DNA of 48,410 nucleotides from a virus (IMGVR_UViG_2531839667_000010:1-48410), one strand, 5' to 3'; positions 26,355-44,089 are shown, numbered from the stretch's first letter. Made by a program: numbers and translations. Notes: generated by a model not told the origin, from the letters alone.

Positions 26355-28276
26355 TATTCATCTCCAGATAATGCCCGCGCGTAATCCGCCAGGGTCTTGT
26401 TATTGTTACGGCTGCCTTCTTCCTCCAGCAGGCTGGCCAGAAGTGAATCAAGATTTAGCTGCCAGCGGGATATGCTTATACGCAGCGCCGCCAGTGCATA
26501 AACAAAGCAATCGAGCGCCTCATTTCGTCGTTTTTTGCTGTCCCAGACGATCTTTTTCTTTCCGTCTACCCATTTTTCCACCTGCTCTTCAGCTGTTAGT
26601 TGTTGGGCCTCTGTTAGATCGTAGATTTCTGGGTTATTCGGGAAATGAACCGCTCCCGCCAGCGGCTCGTCTCTTTGCGCCACCAGCGTGAAACGGTTAT
26701 AAATCTGCTCTTTTGCGGTGTCTGTTCCTACCTCTGTGAGGTAAACACCATTCTTGTTACGCTTGCGTGGCATGTTCGCCACTGGCTTTCCATAAACCGA
26801 CGCCCCCTTTATAGGGATCACACGAAACAGACCGTGTTTTTTTGAGCGGTTGTAGACGATGGTGGGATCAATGCCGCCAATATCCCAGCAAGTGCGGGAT
26901 ATAACCATTTCGAGACCGTTCTGGCGCTTATACGTCCTGTTGATCGCTTCATCAACTCGAGCGAGAGTCGACTCATCATCATGACGACCCATAATGATAA
27001 TTTTGTCGATAAGCCAGCTTTCCTCTCCCGGCCCCCATCCCCAAACACGCATTTCGTAACGGTCAAGCTGGGAGTCAATACCCGCTGTCAGATATGCCAC
27101 TCGCTCCGGCACAGACGCTTCAAAGTGCTCTTTTCGTTCCGCTAAAACTTCAGCATCGGGTCGTTCACCTATTTTCGGTTCCCACGTTTCGCCCAGGGTC
27201 GTGTTAACGAAAGTTTTTCGCTTACCCGTATCACCTTTTGTTTTTATCCAGTCCTTGACGATCTGCACCCAGGTTGTGAACGGGCTATATGCGGTCCAGA
27301 TGTGGAATGTAACGCTGTCAGGAGGTTCAATTTCGGTACCGGATGAAGAAAACCAGTTAAGGCCGTCTCGTGTCCAGATACCTGTTTCATCACAAATATA
27401 CCTGGCCTCCAGAAATTCCAGCTCCTGTTGTTTAATCACACAGGCATTGTGTTCACAGAGGTAGTAAACGCTGGCAGGTTCTCCCGGAGACCATTTGAAG
27501 CCAAATGGTGTCTCTTTATCACCGAATTTCAGATACTGCTCTTCCCCACAGTGTGGGCATGGAACATGGAACCGAAGAAAATGTTCAGACTCCTTAGCAG
27601 CTCTTTCTATCTGGCACGTACCTTTGACTTTCGGTGTAGATCCGCGAATGGATTTCGGCCATACAGAACCCTCAATACGCTTATCACCCAGAAAGGTGGG
27701 AGAACCTTCTTTCTCGATGTCATCATCGAAAGCGGCGAGCTCGTCGTAGCCAGCCACATCAACTGATTTTTCACGGTAGTTTTTTGCAGCCTTACCGCCC
27801 AGGCACCAGAAACCACGACCATTCGAGAAACGCTTCATGCTCAGCGTATTGTCCCGGTGTTTTTTACCGTACCAGGGAGCAAGCGCCAGCAACGTCGGAA
27901 TATCACGAATGGTCGGTTCTACATGAGACTTCATGAAGTTTTCAGCATCACCGTCGGTTGGTAACCATATTAGGGAGTTACGCTGTTTATGTTGGATGAA
28001 ATATGCGTAAACGCCGAGCAACATTTTTGAGTAGCCGACACGAGCCGATTTAACGACATTCACCTCGCGAATATAGTCATTACCCATCGCATTCATAATT
28101 GCACACTGAAATGGCAGTGTTTCCCAGCGCCCTTCCTGGTAGGCAGACTCTTTCGGGAGATAATAATTCTCATCTGCCCATTCAACTGCTGTTTGCGGTT
28201 GCGGCCGGTACAGCGAACGTAACCCCGCCCGCGCAGAGTGCTGCAGCCCCTTAACCTGACTGTTCGATATATTCAC
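26354..28276 (-). CDS. A: Terminase large subunit A
   Basis: 640 aa (lambda gpA is 641 as I recall); follows Nu1 with an overlap. Confidence 0.95.
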
Positions 28277-37864: not shown

Positions 37865-38358
37865 TAAGCCCCCACGTAATTCCCTGAGAGATACCACTCT
37901 TCACCTGATGCAGCCCGCTTACTGCTTTTCCGTAAACACCGTTCACGACGCGCCAGAAAATTGTTTCGTTCTGGCTGGGAGTGGCTTTCACGGAATGCCG
38001 CCATCCACACCGTTGCAGCACGACGGTATAAGCCCCTCGACTCCAGTTCTTCCGCCTGGCGGGTCAGGCACAAAATCACCCGCGGGTCGTTAGTGCCGAC
38101 ATAGAAATTGCGCACAGGTCTGGTTTCACGAACTGGTTGTGGTTCCGGATCCTGCGCTCTCTCAGTCAGGCGCTGGAAATGTCTGTGTGTATCTCCTTCA
38201 CAACGGTGAGCCACACGCCCACTCTGACGTAACTTGCTTGCTGACTGCAGAACGCGCTGCCGTGAGTAACCTGCAAAAGCATCCGCAATGTCTCCGGAAG
38301 TACACCCCGGATGGGCTTCAATGAATTTCTGAACTTCATTCAAAAGACTCATGATCAC
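37864..38358 (-). CDS. Hypothetical regulator (PerC/ANR-like C-terminal region)
   Basis: 164 aa; motif ...LESRGLYRRAATVWMAAF... resembles PerC/ANR regulators as I recall; coupled to the O-like gene (ATGA overlap). Confidence 0.4.
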   Translation of the reverse strand: MIMSLLNEVQKFIEAHPGCTSGDIADAFAGYSRQRVLQSASKLRQSGRVAHRCEGDTHRHFQRLTERAQDPEPQPVRETRPVRNFYVGTNDPRVILCLTRQAEELESRGLYRRAATVWMAAFRESHSQPERNNFLARRERCLRKSSKRAASGEEWYLSGNYVGA

Positions 38359-39347
38359 CCCCTGAATCCTGCCGGGATCTGGCTGTAGTCCACATTGTCG
38401 TAACTGGCTTTGAAGTACGGGTCTTCGCGTTTTTCTGTGTACGTGCTGACGGACGGCGATAAGCGCAGGGAAAGCTCATCCCATTTTTCCCGCAGCTTCG
38501 ACGGGCTGAGCACGTTACGGCACCAGAACGGATCGCGGCTGACGCGGCTGTACATCTCGCAGATTTGTTTGTGAGTACGCCCATCCTGTACACACATCAG
38601 GCGAATTTCGTTTGCCCAGGCTGTCCAGTTCGGTTCTTTAGGACGTACCACTTCGCCGTCACATTCGGCGGCCTGCTCGTACAGAGCGATGATTTTTTTC
38701 CAGAGCCACTGTGCGCAGGTCAAATCATCCTGCGTTCCCCACTGGCGCTTTTTAGGGCTGAATACAACCGCATCAGGATGGCGAGTTAAAAAATCCTGTT
38801 CAGCCATCTGCGTGTCCGGTTGCGAAGCGTCCGGACGAGAAGAGGTTTTATTCTCTGTAGTAATCTCTGTTGTATTCTCTGTAAGATCATTGGGCCATTT
38901 TGACCCGATGACAGCGTGTCGTTTTGAACCAATGGATCGTGTCATTTTGCGCTCATCCATCAGGTCACTTTGACCCGATGGAGAGGTGCATTTTGACCTG
39001 ATGGATTCGTTCACTTTGACCTCTTCTAAAAGCTCACTTTCATAGTTGATCGTGTAGAAGTTGGTCATGTCACGCTTCGATTTATTGAGTTGCTCGCGAC
39101 GCAAAACCCCAAGTGATTTCAGGCTTGCAAATGTGCGTTTCAGAGTGGACTCTGACCAGAACGGAAACTGCTCCAGCCACTGTTCTGTCGTGTTATAAAC
39201 CCAGCGAATTCCGCCATGCTCAGTGCCTGAATTCGTTTCATTCAGCCAGTAATGAAGCTGCTGCAACACAATTGCCTCATTCAGACCAATACGGCATGCA
39301 AGATCACGATTTATCACAATGGGCTGGGATGTCATTAACAGGCTCAT
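38355..39347 (-). CDS. Replication initiator (lambda O-like) containing the origin iterons
   Basis: 330 aa with wHTH-like N-terminus; the gene body carries six 23-bp-spaced iterons, as lambda ori lies within O. Confidence 0.7.
   Translation of the reverse strand: MSLLMTSQPIVINRDLACRIGLNEAIVLQQLHYWLNETNSGTEHGGIRWVYNTTEQWLEQFPFWSESTLKRTFASLKSLGVLRREQLNKSKRDMTNFYTINYESELLEEVKVNESIRSKCTSPSGQSDLMDERKMTRSIGSKRHAVIGSKWPNDLTENTTEITTENKTSSRPDASQPDTQMAEQDFLTRHPDAVVFSPKKRQWGTQDDLTCAQWLWKKIIALYEQAAECDGEVVRPKEPNWTAWANEIRLMCVQDGRTHKQICEMYSRVSRDPFWCRNVLSPSKLREKWDELSLRLSPSVSTYTEKREDPYFKASYDNVDYSQIPAGFRG
38893..39030. repeat. Origin of replication iterons
   Basis: Six copies of about YTTTGACCYGATGGA starting at 38899, 38922, 38945, 38968, 38991, 39014 (constant 23-bp phase), followed by a moderately AT-rich stretch. 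Confidence 0.65.
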
Positions 39348-39568
39348 GCCGCACCTCCGAGATGCTTCATGTTTTTTCCGGAGCGAAAGGCTATAAGCGG
39401 CATACTGACGCGGTAATTACGGCCCAGCGGTTCACAAATCACCTTCTGGCATTCACGGTCAACCAGGCTAACACGTAGAACATGCCCTGCAGGCGTGGTG
39501 TACCACTGACCGGGGCGAGGACAACGGAAAGTCTGATTGGTAAATCGTTTGAAAATATTCCGGATCAT
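39344..39568 (-). CDS. Hypothetical small protein
   Basis: 74 aa; ATGA overlaps with both neighbours. Confidence 0.45.
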   Translation of the reverse strand: MIRNIFKRFTNQTFRCPRPGQWYTTPAGHVLRVSLVDRECQKVICEPLGRNYRVSMPLIAFRSGKNMKHLGGAA

Positions 39569-40725
39569 TTGCGCCCCCTTACCTCTGAAGAGTTCAGCGA
39601 CGAATGAATAAGACGGGCAAGAAATGCCGCATCGTTAATTCGGTCATACAGACTTACAGCCAGCGGTGATTCAGCTTTTTCCAGCATGGGATAAAGCTGC
39701 TGCAACCAGACCTGATGAATTGATGAAATGTAGGAATAGAGAACGCTGGCGTTATGTGCAACGTCGCTCAGTACAGAGGGATTTGAAAGCTGTTTCTCCA
39801 TCTGGTTAAAGGCATTGATGTATGCCTCTTTGAACCGGGCAGCACGTTTACCAGTGAAGCCCATAGCAAGGAACGCGAAGCCATCGCGGGTTATTTGATA
39901 GCAAGGTAGTTTGCGAGTACCGCCGTTGGGCTGGCGTACCAAAATTGATGTCTCCGCAAAATTGCGGGCACAAAACTCTGGAGAACAATCCAAAATGCGA
40001 ATCTTTTTCAGAACATCGTCATGACGTTTAGAGAAGAAGTCAGCAACAGCCAAAGAAGATGTAACAGCCTGACCATCAACGATGGCAATTTCAGGTTGAG
40101 AGAGGGTTGGGACAGTAGCCATGATGGCAGCCTCCGTATGCAATGGATAACTTCCACCACCGGAAACGCCAATTTCGCTGGTGGTGAACTGAGCAGGGTT
40201 GGCGTAACCGGCGCATACGGAAACCGGCGCACCTTTCGGTGCCCCCACCCAGCCCACCATAATTTGGGTATAGCTGAGTTGTAGCAACAAAAAAGACGCT
40301 AACGCGCCAATTGTCGCCGTATGCAATTCCAGGACGCCAATCCCGGCACCCGCTTTATAAGGTGCCTGAACAGTGTAACGTCCCGGAATGGCAGAATCAA
40401 TGTGCTGGTGGTCCTTCACACTCAACAAAATCACGCCTGAATTTCCACAAAGGACTAAAGCACTCATGCGGGTAGTCTTTGCGAAGATAGATAACGCGCT
40501 GTGTTTCTGGCTCCCAACGAATAACATGGACATAAAGCCCTCTTCCGTCACGAAACCAGCGGTTAAGTTCCTGCACAACTCGCCCCCCACAGTCAGGTAA
40601 AGTTCTCTGTGGTTACTTACAGCCAGGTGATTTGGTAATCTGCATTCATGCCGTAACAACAGGTGTTCAGCGACGCTGACCACCAGCTGTTGCGACAAAC
40701 GGTTATTTGCCGTTAAACTGTTCAT
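39565..40725 (-). CDS. Rha-domain phage regulatory protein (start uncertain)
   Basis: Rha-type domain (...IVDGQAVTSSLAVADFFSKRHDDVLKKI...) in residues about 205-300. The longest ORF starts at 40725, coupled to the upstream stop; an internal ATG at 40121-40123 with a GGAGG Shine-Dalgarno would give a 186-aa Rha protein. Confidence 0.55.
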   Translation of the reverse strand: MNSLTANNRLSQQLVVSVAEHLLLRHECRLPNHLAVSNHRELYLTVGGELCRNLTAGFVTEEGFMSMLFVGSQKHSALSIFAKTTRMSALVLCGNSGVILLSVKDHQHIDSAIPGRYTVQAPYKAGAGIGVLELHTATIGALASFLLLQLSYTQIMVGWVGAPKGAPVSVCAGYANPAQFTTSEIGVSGGGSYPLHTEAAIMATVPTLSQPEIAIVDGQAVTSSLAVADFFSKRHDDVLKKIRILDCSPEFCARNFAETSILVRQPNGGTRKLPCYQITRDGFAFLAMGFTGKRAARFKEAYINAFNQMEKQLSNPSVLSDVAHNASVLYSYISSIHQVWLQQLYPMLEKAESPLAVSLYDRINDAAFLARLIHSSLNSSEVRGRK

Positions 40726-41291
40726 GCGTTAGTTTCTCCACAACCAGAAGCAATCGACGCCACGACGCCCGGAGCTGCACACTCGCGGGCGTTACTCTTT
40801 TCCGGCGCACAAAAAACACGAAATAACAGTGTTAAATGCTCCTGCCACTTCGCCATTACTTGGTAGCTGTTCTCTTCGATTTGCTCACGCTCAGCCTGGT
40901 CAATAACTCCATCAGCAGTTGCCTTGCGTAAGTACTGGGAATGCTTGCCAATCCATTCTATTGACTCCATCAGCCGCTGATTAATGTCACCAATGACCAC
41001 CAGCGGCACAAACACCCCATTACTACGACGGGCTATTGCATCTGTTACATGCCTGGTACCACTGGCATCCTGTAAAACCATGGCCCACTCAAGTGGAAAA
41101 ATTTGATCCCCACCGCTACGCAGTCTGTTATGCAATTGATCTTTTGCTGGGGTGATATCATCAGATTTATACAAACCAAGAATTTCTGCTGCTTCCTCAT
41201 AGCCATGAGGTAAATCAGCAATCGTTCTTCGTATTGCTGCCACCAGCCATGCTGGTTGTTTATCAACTTTCCATTCAGGTTCTTTACCCAC
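40722..41291 (-). CDS. Putative CII-like early regulator
   Basis: 189-aa ORF immediately after cro in the rightward operon; family assignment is positional and from a weak recollection of the CP76-type CII family. Confidence 0.4.
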   Translation of the reverse strand: MGKEPEWKVDKQPAWLVAAIRRTIADLPHGYEEAAEILGLYKSDDITPAKDQLHNRLRSGGDQIFPLEWAMVLQDASGTRHVTDAIARRSNGVFVPLVVIGDINQRLMESIEWIGKHSQYLRKATADGVIDQAEREQIEENSYQVMAKWQEHLTLLFRVFCAPEKSNARECAAPGVVASIASGCGETNA

Positions 41292-41318
41292 GGTTAATTC
41301 CTCATTTCTGTGGTGTTT

Positions 41319-41516
41319 TTATGCCGCAGCACTGTTAGTCTTTTGATATAAAGACACGTCAACTTTCAGTTTCCCGTTAGTAATTTTTTCTAACTGGTAC
41401 GCTCGGCCTTCAGGAATAATCTCAGGCCACTCTGAAACAGACGGATGCTTAATACCTAGGGCTTCGGCGGTTTTACAAACTCCGCCGAAATAATTAATCA
41501 CGTCGGATTTCCGCAT
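41319..41516 (-). CDS. cro: Cro-like repressor
   Basis: 65-aa HTH protein divergent from cI across an operator-rich 95-bp spacer. Confidence 0.75.
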   Translation of the reverse strand: MRKSDVINYFGGVCKTAEALGIKHPSVSEWPEIIPEGRAYQLEKITNGKLKVDVSLYQKTNSAAA

Positions 41517-41548
41517 TTCTGTCTCCCGTTAAATTACGTTAAGCAGAA

Positions 41549-41611
41549 ATGTAGGATATCCAACATACCAATGTCAAGAATCCTACATGGGCATGTGGTA
41601 GGATTGCCTAC
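41549..41611. promoter_or_regulatory. OR operator cluster with divergent pR/pRM
   Basis: 18-bp palindrome ATGTAGGATATCCAACAT (41549-41566) plus degenerate copies at 41571-41588 and 41593-41610. Confidence 0.6.
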
Positions 41612-42265
41612 ATGATGAACATGAGTGATCGTATTCGCCAAAGGCGAAAAGAACTGAACCTGACACAACAAGCACTGGCTGATTTGACTGGTGTGAACCG
41701 TGTCACGGTTACTGGATGGGAAAAGGACGACTACCAACCAAATGGAGCCAACCTTCAAGCCCTAGCCAACGCACTTAAATGCGATCCTCTGTGGCTTGTT
41801 AGCGGAAAAGGCTCGCCTGAACCAAAGATAAATCTAAAACCTGAAATATTCGCAGTTAAAAAAGTCCCCCTCATCTCGTGGGTTCAGGCGGGTTCATGGA
41901 CAATGACGGAGCCTGGTGTCAGGAAAGAAGATGCTGAAGAGTGGGTTTATACTACCGCCATTGTATCAGAAATGGCATTTGCACTACGGGTCCGTGGTGA
42001 TTCAATGACCAATCCCCTCGGCTCACCATCGATACCAGAAGGTTCTATCGTTATCGTAGAGCCAGATATTATTGATACAGAGTGTATTAACGGAAAAATC
42101 GTTGTTGCCCATATCAATGGTGGGCAAGAAGCGACACTCAAAAAATTTGTTGAGGACTGGCCGAACAGGTATCTCGTCCCACTAAATCCTAACTATAAAA
42201 CTATTGAATGCGGTGAGAACTGCAGAATAGTTGGTCTTGTCAAACAAGTAATAATGGATTTTTGA
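41612..42265 (+). CDS. cI: CI-type prophage repressor (HTH plus S24 LexA-like autopeptidase)
   Basis: 217 aa; N-terminal HTH (LTQQALADLTGV), C-terminal RVRGDSM Ser nucleophile and downstream Lys. Confidence 0.9.
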   Translation: MMNMSDRIRQRRKELNLTQQALADLTGVNRVTVTGWEKDDYQPNGANLQALANALKCDPLWLVSGKGSPEPKINLKPEIFAVKKVPLISWVQAGSWTMTEPGVRKEDAEEWVYTTAIVSEMAFALRVRGDSMTNPLGSPSIPEGSIVIVEPDIIDTECINGKIVVAHINGGQEATLKKFVEDWPNRYLVPLNPNYKTIECGENCRIVGLVKQVIMDF

Positions 42266-42286
42266 CACATCTTCCTCACTATCGCA

Positions 42287-42311
42287 AAACCGGGGTATCC
42301 CCGGTTTTTTT
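42287..42311 (+). terminator. Rho-independent terminator after cI
   Basis: Stem ccggggtatccccgg followed by T7. Confidence 0.7.
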
Positions 42312-42327
42312 ATGAGCCTATCTTTTT

Positions 42328-42385
42328 ATGTAGGATAACCAACATAAACTCTTGACACTCACATGTTGGATATCCTACATTTGTT
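42328..42385 (+). promoter_or_regulatory. OL operators and pL promoter
   Basis: Two copies of the 18-bp operator (ATGTAGGATAACCAACAT 42328-42345; ATGTTGGATATCCTACAT 42363-42380) flank TTGACA (42352-42357); the second operator overlaps the -10 region. Confidence 0.6.
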
Positions 42386-42445
42386 TTTAGAGTAGCCGCC
42401 GGTGGCGTATGAATGACCGGATGATTCGCTGACAGAAAACTTAGG

Positions 42446-42829
42446 TTGGGGGTAGAGGTTTACATGAATCATTTATTCACATGCTCATTTTGCGGAGCAA
42501 CCGAACTGGGAGCGATAAAGATCGTCGCAAAAGGTGGTAAGGACGAACCTGCCATCTGTTCGGAATGCGTAGTCACATGTGTAGAAAAAATGATCCTGAC
42601 TAAAAAATCAGAGGCTGAAAAACCAACCTCTGATAACGAAATAATATCAGTCGATAAAAAACTATTTAAAGAGCTTCTTCAGCTTGTCCTCAACCATCCT
42701 GATTTCGGAAGTAAGCTGGCTGCTGTTGACATTGATAGTAGCTCCACATCGACAAGTGAAACTTTTGTTCGACTTGAGCCAAGCGATTTTCTTCTTCGTC
42801 TTAGTGCCGCACTTAGGGCATGCGGGTAA
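42446..42829 (+). CDS. ClpX-type C4 zinc-finger protein, first gene of the pL operon
   Basis: 127 aa; N-terminus FTCSFCGATELGAIKIVAKGGKDEPAICSECVVTC resembles the ClpX zinc-binding domain (CSFCG...ICxEC) as I recall; GAGG Shine-Dalgarno 6 nt before the ATG; no AAA+ domain. Confidence 0.55.
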   Translation: MGVEVYMNHLFTCSFCGATELGAIKIVAKGGKDEPAICSECVVTCVEKMILTKKSEAEKPTSDNEIISVDKKLFKELLQLVLNHPDFGSKLAAVDIDSSSTSTSETFVRLEPSDFLLRLSAALRACG

Positions 42830-42942
42830 CGTAATTTCCTGGTTATCAAAAGCGCCCATAAACATCCCTCTTGGTTGTGTGAGAACACCAAGATACCACC
42901 GCGCCTGATGTGGTTAAAAGCAGGCTAAAGCAATAACAAGTA

Positions 42943-43003
42943 ACTCCCTGTTCTGGCGGCCCGGTGTTTTCCCGTGTATTTCCGGTAACCGCCAGCCTTT
43001 TTC
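42943..43003 (+). terminator. Terminator-like hairpin after the first pL gene (tL1-like position)
   Basis: Stem ctggcgg/ccgccag around a 29-nt loop, followed by CCTTTTTC. Confidence 0.3.
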
Positions 43004-43171
43004 AGGGCACAACAGAAAAGGGCATCACCGGGCGACGGGCTCATAACCCAATCCACCCGGGCAAAAAGAAAGCGGTCTCTGCAAGCCGCCGACCAATGCA
43101 GGTGCCCTTCTCTGTTGTGTATGGAGAAACTAACTTTTTAGCGCCGGTGCAGAGGCGTTGAGGAACCGAGA

Positions 43172-44089
43172 ATGAACAATCCGTTTTTCAAAAATATGTT
43201 GGTGTATCGCATTAGTCGCGATTTCACCATCAACCAGGAAGAGCTGGAACAGCAGCTTGAACTATTTCGCTTCACTCCATGCGGTAGCCAGGATATGGCA
43301 AAAACCGGTTGGGTATCACCACTTGGTCAGCTGTCAGATCGCTTGCATCACACTGTCAATAATCAAGTGTTGTTGGTTATTCGCCGGGAAGAAAAAATAC
43401 TGCCATCTCCTGTCATTGCTGAAGAACTGCGCAAGCGTGTGTCGCGTCTGGAATCCGATCAGGGGCGTCGCCTCAAAAAAACTGAGAAAGATTCGCTGCG
43501 TGATGAAGTGTTGCACTCCCTGCTTCCTCGGGCGTTCTCCAAAAACTCGACTGTTAGTTTGTGGATCAACGTCACCGACGGTCTGATCATGGTTGATGCA
43601 GCCAGCGCTAAACGTGCCGAAGACTCACTGGCCCTGCTTCGTAAAACTCTCGGTTCTCTCCCGGTGGTACCGCTGACTATGGAAACGCCGATCTAACTAA
43701 CTATGACCGAATGGGTTCGTTCCGGTAGTGCGCCTGCTGGCTTTGGCCTGGGTGATGAAGCCGAACTGAAAGCTATTCTTGAAGATGGCGGTATTGGACG
43801 CTTTAAAAAACAGACTCTGGTCAGTGACGAAATTCATGTGCATCTGGAAGCTGGCAAAGTAGTTACAAAGCTGTCTATCGACTGGCAACAGCGCATTCAG
43901 TTCGTTCTTTGCGATGACGGCAGCATCAAACGCCTTAAGTTCTCTAATGAGATTACAGAACAAAACGACGATATCGACCGTGAGGATGCGGCTCAGCGGT
44001 TCGACGCTGACTTTGTTCTGATGACCGGCGAGCTTATCTCTCTCATTAACGGATTAACAACCTCTCTCGGCGGCGAAGCCAAGCGATAA
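43172..44089 (+). pseudogene. rdgC: RdgC-like recombination-associated protein, interrupted by one in-frame TAA
   Basis: Listed ORFs 43172..43696 and 43703..44089 are in the same frame, separated only by TAA at 43694-43696; together they resemble full-length RdgC as I recall ([11 protein letters not shown]..., ...[19 protein letters not shown]...). Confidence 0.75.

Follow-up and report, generated by a model that had tools for sequence, protein, structure and literature searches.

The window analyzed here, a 48,410-nucleotide stretch of DNA carrying an Escherichia coli prophage, contains repeated 18-bp palindromes that are very probably the operators of a P22-type (immC-like) lysis/lysogeny switch. 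Judged from its sequence and surroundings, the palindrome is almost certainly the binding site of both the repressor (CI) and the Cro protein of the prophage, and these sites can soundly be predicted to set its immunity specificity. The mechanism of the switch is ordinary; its operator specificity class is new, within the known P22-type switch. We have filed it as a new specificity because the literature search returned neither the operator sequence nor a description of the operators of phage mEp390: full-text searches with 13-nt operator substrings gave no match, and searches on mEp390, SfV, and YeP1 found no operator description. The features of the region are listed in Table 1.

Table 1. 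Positions and properties of the operators, promoters, genes, and other features of the switch region, in window coordinates
Feature	Position	Strand	Description
OR1	41549-41566	none	ATGTAGGATATCCAACAT; 0 mismatches to consensus; covers the spacer and -10 of pR
OR2	41571-41588	none	ATGTCAAGAATCCTACAT; weak, 5 mismatches; right half-site perfect, pR -35 (+ strand TGTCAA) in place of the left half
OR3	41596-41613	none	TGGTAGGATTGCCTACAT; 4 mismatches; lies over the first ATG of cI (41612) and holds the predicted pRM -10
OL2	42328-42345	none	ATGTAGGATAACCAACAT; 1 mismatch; 6 bp upstream of the pL -35
OL1	42363-42380	none	ATGTTGGATATCCTACAT; 0 mismatches, orientation opposite to OR1; covers the spacer and -10 of pL
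pR	41548-41577	-	TTGACA 41577..41572, 18-bp spacer, TACATT 41553..41548; drives cro and the cII-like gene
pL	42352-42381	+	TTGACA, 18-bp spacer, TACATT; drives the ClpX-zinc-finger-like gene, rdgC, and later genes
pRM (predicted)	41576-41604	+	-35 AAGAAT 41576-41581, 17-bp spacer, -10 TAGGAT 41599-41604
cI intrinsic terminator	42286-42311	+	10-bp stem AAAACCGGGG/CCCCGGUUUU, then a U run
Putative immunity cassette	40975-42393	none	5' part of the cII/YmfL-like gene, cro, OR, cI, terminator, OL/pL
cI	41612-42265	+	217 aa; HTH_3 and Peptidase_S24
cro	41319-41516	-	65 aa; P22_Cro PF14549, E 7.6e-22, 77.3 bits against a cut-off of 30.2
cII-like/YmfL-family regulator	40722-41291	-	Second gene of the pR operon; Phage_CP76, E 7e-6
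Ash/Rha-type regulator	39565-40725		pR operon, after the cII-like gene; 386 aa, Ash and Rha
ClpX-zinc-finger-like gene	42464-42829		First gene after pL

Operators, promoters, and repressor

A preliminary description of this region had proposed that one 18-bp palindrome is shared by the cro/cI spacer and the pL region, and scanning of the window bore this out, with exact copies starting at 41549 and 42363 and a copy with one mismatch at 42328. When the 18-mer ATGTAGGATATCCAACAT was searched for with up to three mismatches, six strand matches were obtained in the window versus 0.05 expected, a count that was reached by none of 100 dinucleotide-preserving shuffles of the window. The half-site motif ATGTWGGAT, which had been put forward for a search of this kind, occurred seven times versus 0.80 expected (the largest value in the shuffles was 3), and six of the seven copies were located within 41549-41588 or 42328-42380. 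Only a single stray copy was found, at 27989, and the half-site is not similarly frequent throughout the window.

The window was also scanned with the symmetric consensus ATGTWGGATATCCWACAT. The sites are 18 bp long and two-fold symmetric, with conserved outer positions and an A/T-rich center, which is ATAT or ATAA in the strong sites. The sequence at 41596-41613 was the sole four-mismatch site in the window (0.4 sites with up to four mismatches expected per shuffle), and four five-mismatch sites were found in all, consisting of OR2 and three equally good chance sites elsewhere. By count alone OR2 has no significance, and its assignment is a weak one that rests on position and conservation. 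The two degenerate copies at 41571 and 41596 had been overlooked in the preliminary description; since they accompany the copy at 41549, we consider OR to consist of three sites rather than one, and the shared palindrome itself stands as proposed. No further operator copies with up to four mismatches were found elsewhere in the window by the consensus scan. The window scan also gave no match for a third OL site upstream of OL2, where the T-run of the cI terminator sits (42299-42316).

The pR and pL promoters each match the consensus hexamers at 10 of 12 positions (promoter consensus scan) and are mirror images of each other, and the pL hexamers are conserved in related loci. Read in the direction of transcription, both consist of an identical 30-bp module, TTGACA-N5-ATGTTGGATATCCTACAT-T, on opposite strands, and because the modules are identical, OR1 and OL1 cover the spacer and the -10 of their promoters in the same register. 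The second OL copy had correctly been described as overlapping the -10 of a TTGACA promoter, which reads TTGACA-N18-TACATT on the + strand; the matching overlap of OR1 with the pR -10 had gone unnoticed. The cI terminator hairpin (-16.6 kcal/mol, z = -4.25) separates cI from OL2, and a hairpin followed by a T-run was found at the equivalent place in most related loci. The location of the palindromes between the divergently transcribed cI and cro genes, and again past the cI terminator over a second TTGACA promoter, supports reading them as repressor operators. The predicted pRM would start transcription at or next to the cI AUG and thereby produce a leaderless or near-leaderless cI transcript. 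Both its -10 and this near-leaderless mRNA are predicted from a position-by-position correspondence with the annotated P22 PRM, in which the left half of OR3 holds the -10 and the c2 ATG comes 4 nt after the start of the RM transcript.

The N-terminal helix-turn-helix of CI is similar to the N-terminal domain of P22 C2 (phmmer against the PDB; 1adr, 2r1j, and 3jxb, E 3e-15, gapless over residues 4-66), with residue i of the window protein corresponding to residue i+2 of P22 C2. Its recognition helix is GVNRVTVTGWE versus GVSNVAISQWE in P22 C2; in P22 numbering, Val33 and Asn46 are kept, and S31, N32, and Q37 are replaced by N, R, and G. The C-terminal S24 domain (PF00717, E 3e-25) is similar to the C-terminal domain of lambda cI (E 1e-22 to 1e-25; full-length 3bdn, E 1e-24). 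All 19 homologs examined keep the Ala-Gly cleavage site (A93-G94), Ser131, and Lys177/178 unchanged, and these residues align to the VQAG, (D/N)SM, and KK motifs of lambda. Because of this invariance, CI looks like a self-cleaving repressor of the LexA/lambda-cI type that is SOS-inducible.

Comparison with P22 and other known switches

The P22 repressor has six natural operators with the consensus ATTTAAGATATCTTAAAT (PMC5175364). In the P22 operator, the repressor contacts positions 2-7 and 12-17 and senses the center (8-11) indirectly, and altering position 3 reduces the affinity by a factor of 16 or more (PMC4267663). Contact of Q37 with the inner half-site is also noted in the P22 literature. 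Between the window consensus and that of P22, the only differences are at positions 3 and 6 and the positions symmetric to them, and the ATAT center is common to both. The same scan was applied to the window and to the P22 immC region as annotated in locus L065. The three OR sites start at 1420, 1443, and 1468 in the P22 locus and at 41549, 41571, and 41596 in the window, giving spacings of 23 and 25 bp in P22 versus 22 and 25 bp here, and OR2 is the weakest match in P22 as well. P22 OR3 ends 1 nt before the c2 ATG and the window OR3 overlaps the cI ATG. OL2 and OL1 are 35 bp apart in each (2204 and 2239 in P22, 42328 and 42363 in the window), with the pL module being TTGACC-N5-OL1 in P22 and TTGACA-N5-OL1 here. 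The layout of the sites is thus the same as that of P22 immC to within 1 to 2 bp. Further features in common with P22 are a Cro of the P22_Cro family, 18-bp symmetric operators with an ATAT-type A/T center, and a repressor gene followed directly by OL/pL, with no rex-like insert.

Conversely, the half-site is ATTTAAG in P22 and ATGTWGG here, differing at positions 3 and 6, both of which are contacted in P22, and the recognition helix is SNVAISQ in P22 and NRVTVTG here. OL3, which is weak in P22, has no recognizable counterpart in the window because the T-run of the cI terminator occupies its place. In addition, the C-terminal domain of CI scores best against lambda cI, the gene adjoining pL is ClpX-zinc-finger-like with no homolog of N/gene 24 noticed there, and the virion genes in close relatives of the prophage are of the HK97-head and contractile-tail type. 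With up to three mismatches allowed over the contacted positions, the P22 operator consensus identified no site in the window except chance matches outside OR and OL. Because its operator differs at contacted positions 3 and 6, the prophage would be expected to be heteroimmune to P22.

The preliminary description had also called for a comparison with known lambdoid immunity types. The placement of repressor and operators held up in this comparison, but the model is P22 immC, not lambda itself, and there are only two OL sites. Lambda shares the divergent pR/pRM pair, the tripartite OR, the OL sites over pL, and a homologous CI C-terminal dimerization and self-cleavage domain in which the Ala-Gly, Ser, and Lys residues are conserved. 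It differs in having 17-bp operators of unrelated sequence, a Cro of a different fold family, three OL sites, and rexAB between cI and OL, and the CI N-terminal domain here is of the P22/434 type. The cryptic prophage e14 of E. coli K-12 (ymfK-ymfT-ymfL) has the same gene order of repressor, cro-like gene, and YmfL, its YmfL is 55% identical to the cII-like protein of the window, and its pL leader carries the same conserved RNA element described below. However, YmfK shares the S24 domain only (35% identity over 146 aa), and we rejected e14 as a member of the same immunity type, since the N-terminal domain of YmfK is different and the e14 repeats are of the TGTACC type.

The coliphage mEp390 (CI helix GVNRVTVTGWE) and the Yersinia phage YeP1 (CI helix GVSRVTVTGWE) have the same five-site layout and the same operator class as the prophage, and the OR3 of mEp390 is identical to that of the window. 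Differences were found in the CI N-terminal domains, which are 64% and 74% identical to that of the prophage and differ in helix 2, and in the outer positions of OR1 and OL1 (TAGTAGGATATCTTACAT, AAGTAAGATATCCTACAT).

Conservation of the sites and their co-variation with CI and Cro

A search for CI homologs produced a graded family with identities from 99% down to about 50%. An alignment of 19 homologs led to the retrieval of 63 genomic loci, and 22 loci (CI identity of 49 to 90%, about 110 kb) were scanned for operators. These were from Escherichia, Erwinia, Trabulsiella, Enterobacter, Pantoea, Rahnella, Atlantibacter, Kosakonia, Kluyvera, Sodalis, Tatumella, Proteus, and Morganella. Their CI helix is GVNRVTVTGWE, or GVSRVTVTGWE in L014 and L015. 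Relative to the cI start, sites with up to four mismatches were found near -64 and -16, together with a pair of sites 33 to 35 bp apart around a TTGAC -35 downstream of the cI terminator, and only one stray operator match was present in the approximately 110 kb. An OR1 equivalent at about -64 was kept in 21 related loci. OR3 was near-invariant at -16 in 20 of the 22 loci, the exception being L016, with three or fewer base changes in 19 and four in L014. The right half of OR2 (TCCTACAT/TCTTACAT) is conserved in related loci as well. Altogether, about 20 prophages from a dozen enterobacterial genera, as well as mEp390 and YeP1, have the same helix, the same operator class, and the sites in the same places, with the helix being GVSRVTVTGWE in three, including YeP1.

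In a per-column identity profile, OR was smeared out by register shifts of 1 bp from locus to locus, and the comparison draws instead on the printed alignments and the scans. The alignments show conserved operators and promoter hexamers, with variation in the spacers, in the cro leader, and in the distance to the cI stop. The conservation of OR could in part reflect shared ancestry of the whole intergenic region instead of selection on the sites, though the spacers diverge.

In a sister group of about 12 loci, the CI helix is GVSRVSVTKWE, and the same architecture occurs with the half-site AKGTAAC (for example, AGGTAACAAAAGGTACAT and ATGTAACATTGGTTACAT). We scanned the loci with the consensus of each class, allowing no more than one mismatch over 14 specified positions. 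The consensus of this class gave 37 matches in the OR/OL zones of its own class (17 loci), that of the sister class gave 22 in its own zones (9 loci), and that of P22 gave 3 in the P22 OR/OL zones, and none of the three matched anywhere else, including the other classes. The counts for the own class are circular in part, since the consensuses were derived from the same loci, but the exclusivity across classes and the confinement to OR/OL zones is independent evidence. The Cro proteins of all these loci are homologs of P22 Cro, and their recognition helices differ by class, being H(P/A)SVS(E/G)W with GRA(Y/F) in this class, HPAV(C/S)RW with KQA in the sister class, and DAAVSQW with KDAY in P22. 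Short of biochemistry, the strongest evidence that the sites would serve as operators of both proteins is this joint variation of CI, Cro, and operator across the classes.

The half-sites ATTTAAG of P22, ATGTWRG of this class, and AKGTAAC of the sister class might represent a finely graded specificity series within one repressor/Cro family, in which the architecture is base-pair-identical, a few helix changes retarget single positions, and Cro co-evolves. We put this forward tentatively and with a little less than even confidence. From the three-class comparison the following residue-to-base hypotheses can be framed in P22 numbering: N32R may go with the change of T3 to G, S31N with tolerance of G6, and Q37 to G/K with the change of G7 to C.

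Predicted operation of the switch and determinants of immunity

A dimer of CI (217-aa subunit) or of Cro (65-aa subunit) would read each symmetric site through its helix-turn-helix, contacting the outer positions ATGTWGG/CCWACAT and, as in P22, sensing the A/T-rich center indirectly. In the lysogen, CI at OR1 and OR2 would block pR by covering its -10 and -35, and CI at OL1 and OL2 would block pL. CI bound to OR2 would probably aid the weak pRM, the -10 of which is inside OR3, and occupancy of OR3 at high CI levels would shut pRM off. RecA-stimulated self-cleavage of CI at Ala93-Gly94 would lift repression, after which Cro would take the same sites and drive development in the lytic direction. 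Binding itself is inferred, as are the ranking of the sites by affinity, pRM together with its activation, any cooperativity or looping, and the immunity phenotypes; for pRM, cooperativity, and OR-OL looping the models are P22 and lambda. Cooperativity between adjacent dimers in the style of lambda is not obviously possible at OL, because there are only two sites and their centers are 35 bp (about 3.3 helical turns) apart.

Additional layers of immunity are possible because an Ash/Rha regulator and a leader RNA are nearby. The palindromes could then be true operators and yet not the sole or decisive determinant of immunity, with a second layer provided by the Ash/Rha regulator or by an RNA- or termination-based process on the pL leader. 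The 386-aa protein with Ash and Rha is encoded within the pR operon, the SfV record names the homologous neighborhood "immunity region," and a structured RNA is conserved in the pL leader of many relatives; half of this RNA is left in the window. For SfV, Roberts et al. reportedly described in 2007 a mechanism of this RNA- or termination-based kind at the pL leader. We nevertheless regard a decisive second layer as rather unlikely: the unit that is swapped between phages (see below) extends exactly over cII-like/cro/OR/cI/OL, with the Rha gene left outside, the window has a truncated copy of the leader RNA, and CI, Cro, and operator co-vary as the primary determinant of specificity should.

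The leader element itself is about 63 nt long (GCGAACAGGCAGGACGCCCACGAAGUAGCCGCCGGUGGCGUAUGAAUGACCGGAUGAUUCGC) and is located directly downstream of pL/OL1 in many loci of both operator classes. It was also found in e14, SfV, SfII, SfIV, ST64B, ZF40, phiNP, mEp460, mEp237, and YeP1. Folding with RNAalifold gave an outer helix around two hairpins, with three pairs of hairpin 2 showing compensatory changes in 7 to 8 of 18 sequences. The window retains only the 3' half of the element (42391-42435), and the break is at the right end of the immunity cassette. Rfam searches of window positions 40500-43500 and of a locus with the full element gave only sub-threshold chance matches. An nhmmer profile of the element was run against the fetched parts of HK022 (L066 and L067, which presumably span nun-pL-cI-cro), the P22 immC/nutL region, and the complete HK639 genome with its annotated putL-like RNA. 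It found no match in any of them, and on these grounds sequence homology of the element to known put or nut sites was rejected.

It is very unlikely that the sites are bound by CI only or by Cro only, or by another regulator such as the cII/YmfL-like protein, instead of by both CI and Cro, and no particular observation favors such a reading. Lambda CII and P22 C1 recognize direct repeats flanking a -35, and CII-type activators use such repeats around the -35, not 18-bp palindromes; moreover, the left end of the cassette splits the cII-like gene. The recognition helices of both CI and Cro shift with the operator class, and at the equivalent sites of P22 both C2 and Cro have been annotated and studied (PMC4267663). 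Finally, the chance that the repeats are non-regulatory, whether as chance palindromes, remnants of mobile-element inverted repeats, or a duplicated promoter segment, is negligible: although duplication could create the 30-bp module common to pR and pL, none of the 100 shuffles reached the observed count, the five sites keep their positions in over 20 loci of different genera with diverging flanks, P22 and the sister classes have this layout with other sequences, there is no transposase or target duplication in the vicinity, and the shuffles, the locus conservation, and the class-consensus scan effectively refute this explanation.

The operators, with the CI and Cro that are predicted to bind them, lie in a segment that is shared between phages. 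Positions 41200-42393 are common to vB_EcoM-720R4, SKA5, Lys8385Vzw, and three Stx2c-converting phages at an identity of at least 99.7%, and the identity with these phages stops at 42393, 12 bp past the pL -10. For vB_EcoM-720R4, colinear identity is present only from about 40975 to 42393, and this left end cuts through the cII-like gene. In phages of other immunity (SfV, mEp460, cdtI, and Stx2a phages), the replication/Rha side at 38000-40815 is common and is followed by a break. Based on these breakpoints against phages with differing flanks, the unit of exchange consists of the 5' part of the cII-like gene, cro, OR, cI, the terminator, and OL/pL. The segment from 40975 to 42393 thus looks as an immunity cassette should, and it appears to move between phages as one unit. 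Outside it, rdgC (43172-44089) has an in-frame stop at codon 175. The region was present in part in 512 of 5426 complete E. coli genomes (about 9%), and 140 contained at least 80% of it.

The understanding of such switches is unchanged by these results. What they provide are the exact cis-elements and the cassette limits for an immunity type found in about 9% of complete E. coli genomes. With these defined, and with the cassette also present in Stx2c-converting phages, prophages could be assigned to immunity groups by sequence, and predictions of cross-immunity with mEp390 and YeP1 would become possible and testable. The three-class comparison also yields testable residue-to-base assignments for the well-studied P22 repressor fold. 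If the graded specificity series is true, these prophages would constitute a previously undescribed immunity group that extends across many genera and includes mEp390 and YeP1, and they would offer a ready-made system for the study of repressor-operator co-evolution and cross-immunity.

The conserved RNA element downstream of pL

Directly 3' of the predicted promoter pL and the proposed operator OL1 that overlaps it, we observed a conserved structured RNA element of approximately 63 nt, which is found in many prophages of differing immunity types as well as in phages SfV, SfII, SfIV, ST64B, ZF40, phiNP, mEp460, mEp237, YeP1, and e14. Its outer helix is GCGAACA/UGAUUCGC and its first hairpin is GGC-AGGAC-GCC, while the second hairpin has three pairs with compensatory changes in 7 to 8 of 18 sequences. 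In the window, the break that leaves half of the element falls exactly on the boundary of the exchangeable immunity cassette at position 42393. The element carries no annotation and matched no family in Rfam, and comparison with the HK639 putL-like RNA, the P22 immC region, and the parts of HK022 that were fetched revealed no similarity. We regard it as a candidate leader or antiterminator RNA of the N-less SfV-like phages.

Features of the window and of the compared loci
Feature	Location	Strand	Detail
Ash + Rha ORF	window 39565-40725	-	386 aa
RNA element, window copy	42391-42435		3' half only
RNA element, complete copies (examples)	L010:3261-3345; L008; L039; L071; L073		L071, YeP1; L073, e14 of K-12
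121-aa protein gene	window 42464-42829		first after pL
rdgC	window 43172-44089		gene 2 of pL operon
L042 palindrome			AAGTAAGAATGCTTACTA
L051 palindrome, upstream			TGTTTAATTCTTTAAACA
L051 palindrome, downstream			AGTTTAATTATTCAAACT

Genes flanking the immunity cassette

The position held by N or gene 24 in lambda and P22 is occupied in the window by the gene for a 121-aa protein with an N terminus similar to the C4 zinc finger of ClpX (PF06689; E value, 7.6e-6, slightly under the Pfam cutoff). This protein could act as a decoy or modulator for substrate recognition by ClpX. Codon 175 of the window rdgC gene is an in-frame stop (43694-43696). E. coli AH04 carries a close relative in which rdgC is intact at 918 bp. 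On the other side of the cassette, Ash and Rha domains are joined in a single ORF, whereas AH04 has a shorter Rha-family gene and a DUF4222 gene at the corresponding place. In the SfV record, orf37, a gene in the homologous neighborhood, bears the label "immunity region."

Proposed operators, probable excised forms, and possible specificity classes

The EcoRV site GATATC forms the center of both proposed operators OR1 (41555-41560) and OL1 (42369-42374), and the center of OL2 is GATAAC. These sites are probably incidental; they are handy for operator mapping or mutation. Two separate replicon records, NZ_CP081704.1 (43,680 bp) from E. coli AH02 and NZ_CP081794.1 (43,671 bp) from CT01, share their immunity region with the chromosome of their own strain. 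They are probably assembled circles of excised phage, an indication that prophages of this type are active. Among the fetched loci, the CI homologs encoded by L042, L051, and L043/L060 are more distant and differ in their recognition helices; these loci have yet other palindromes at the same positions, suggesting that one scaffold carries many specificity classes.
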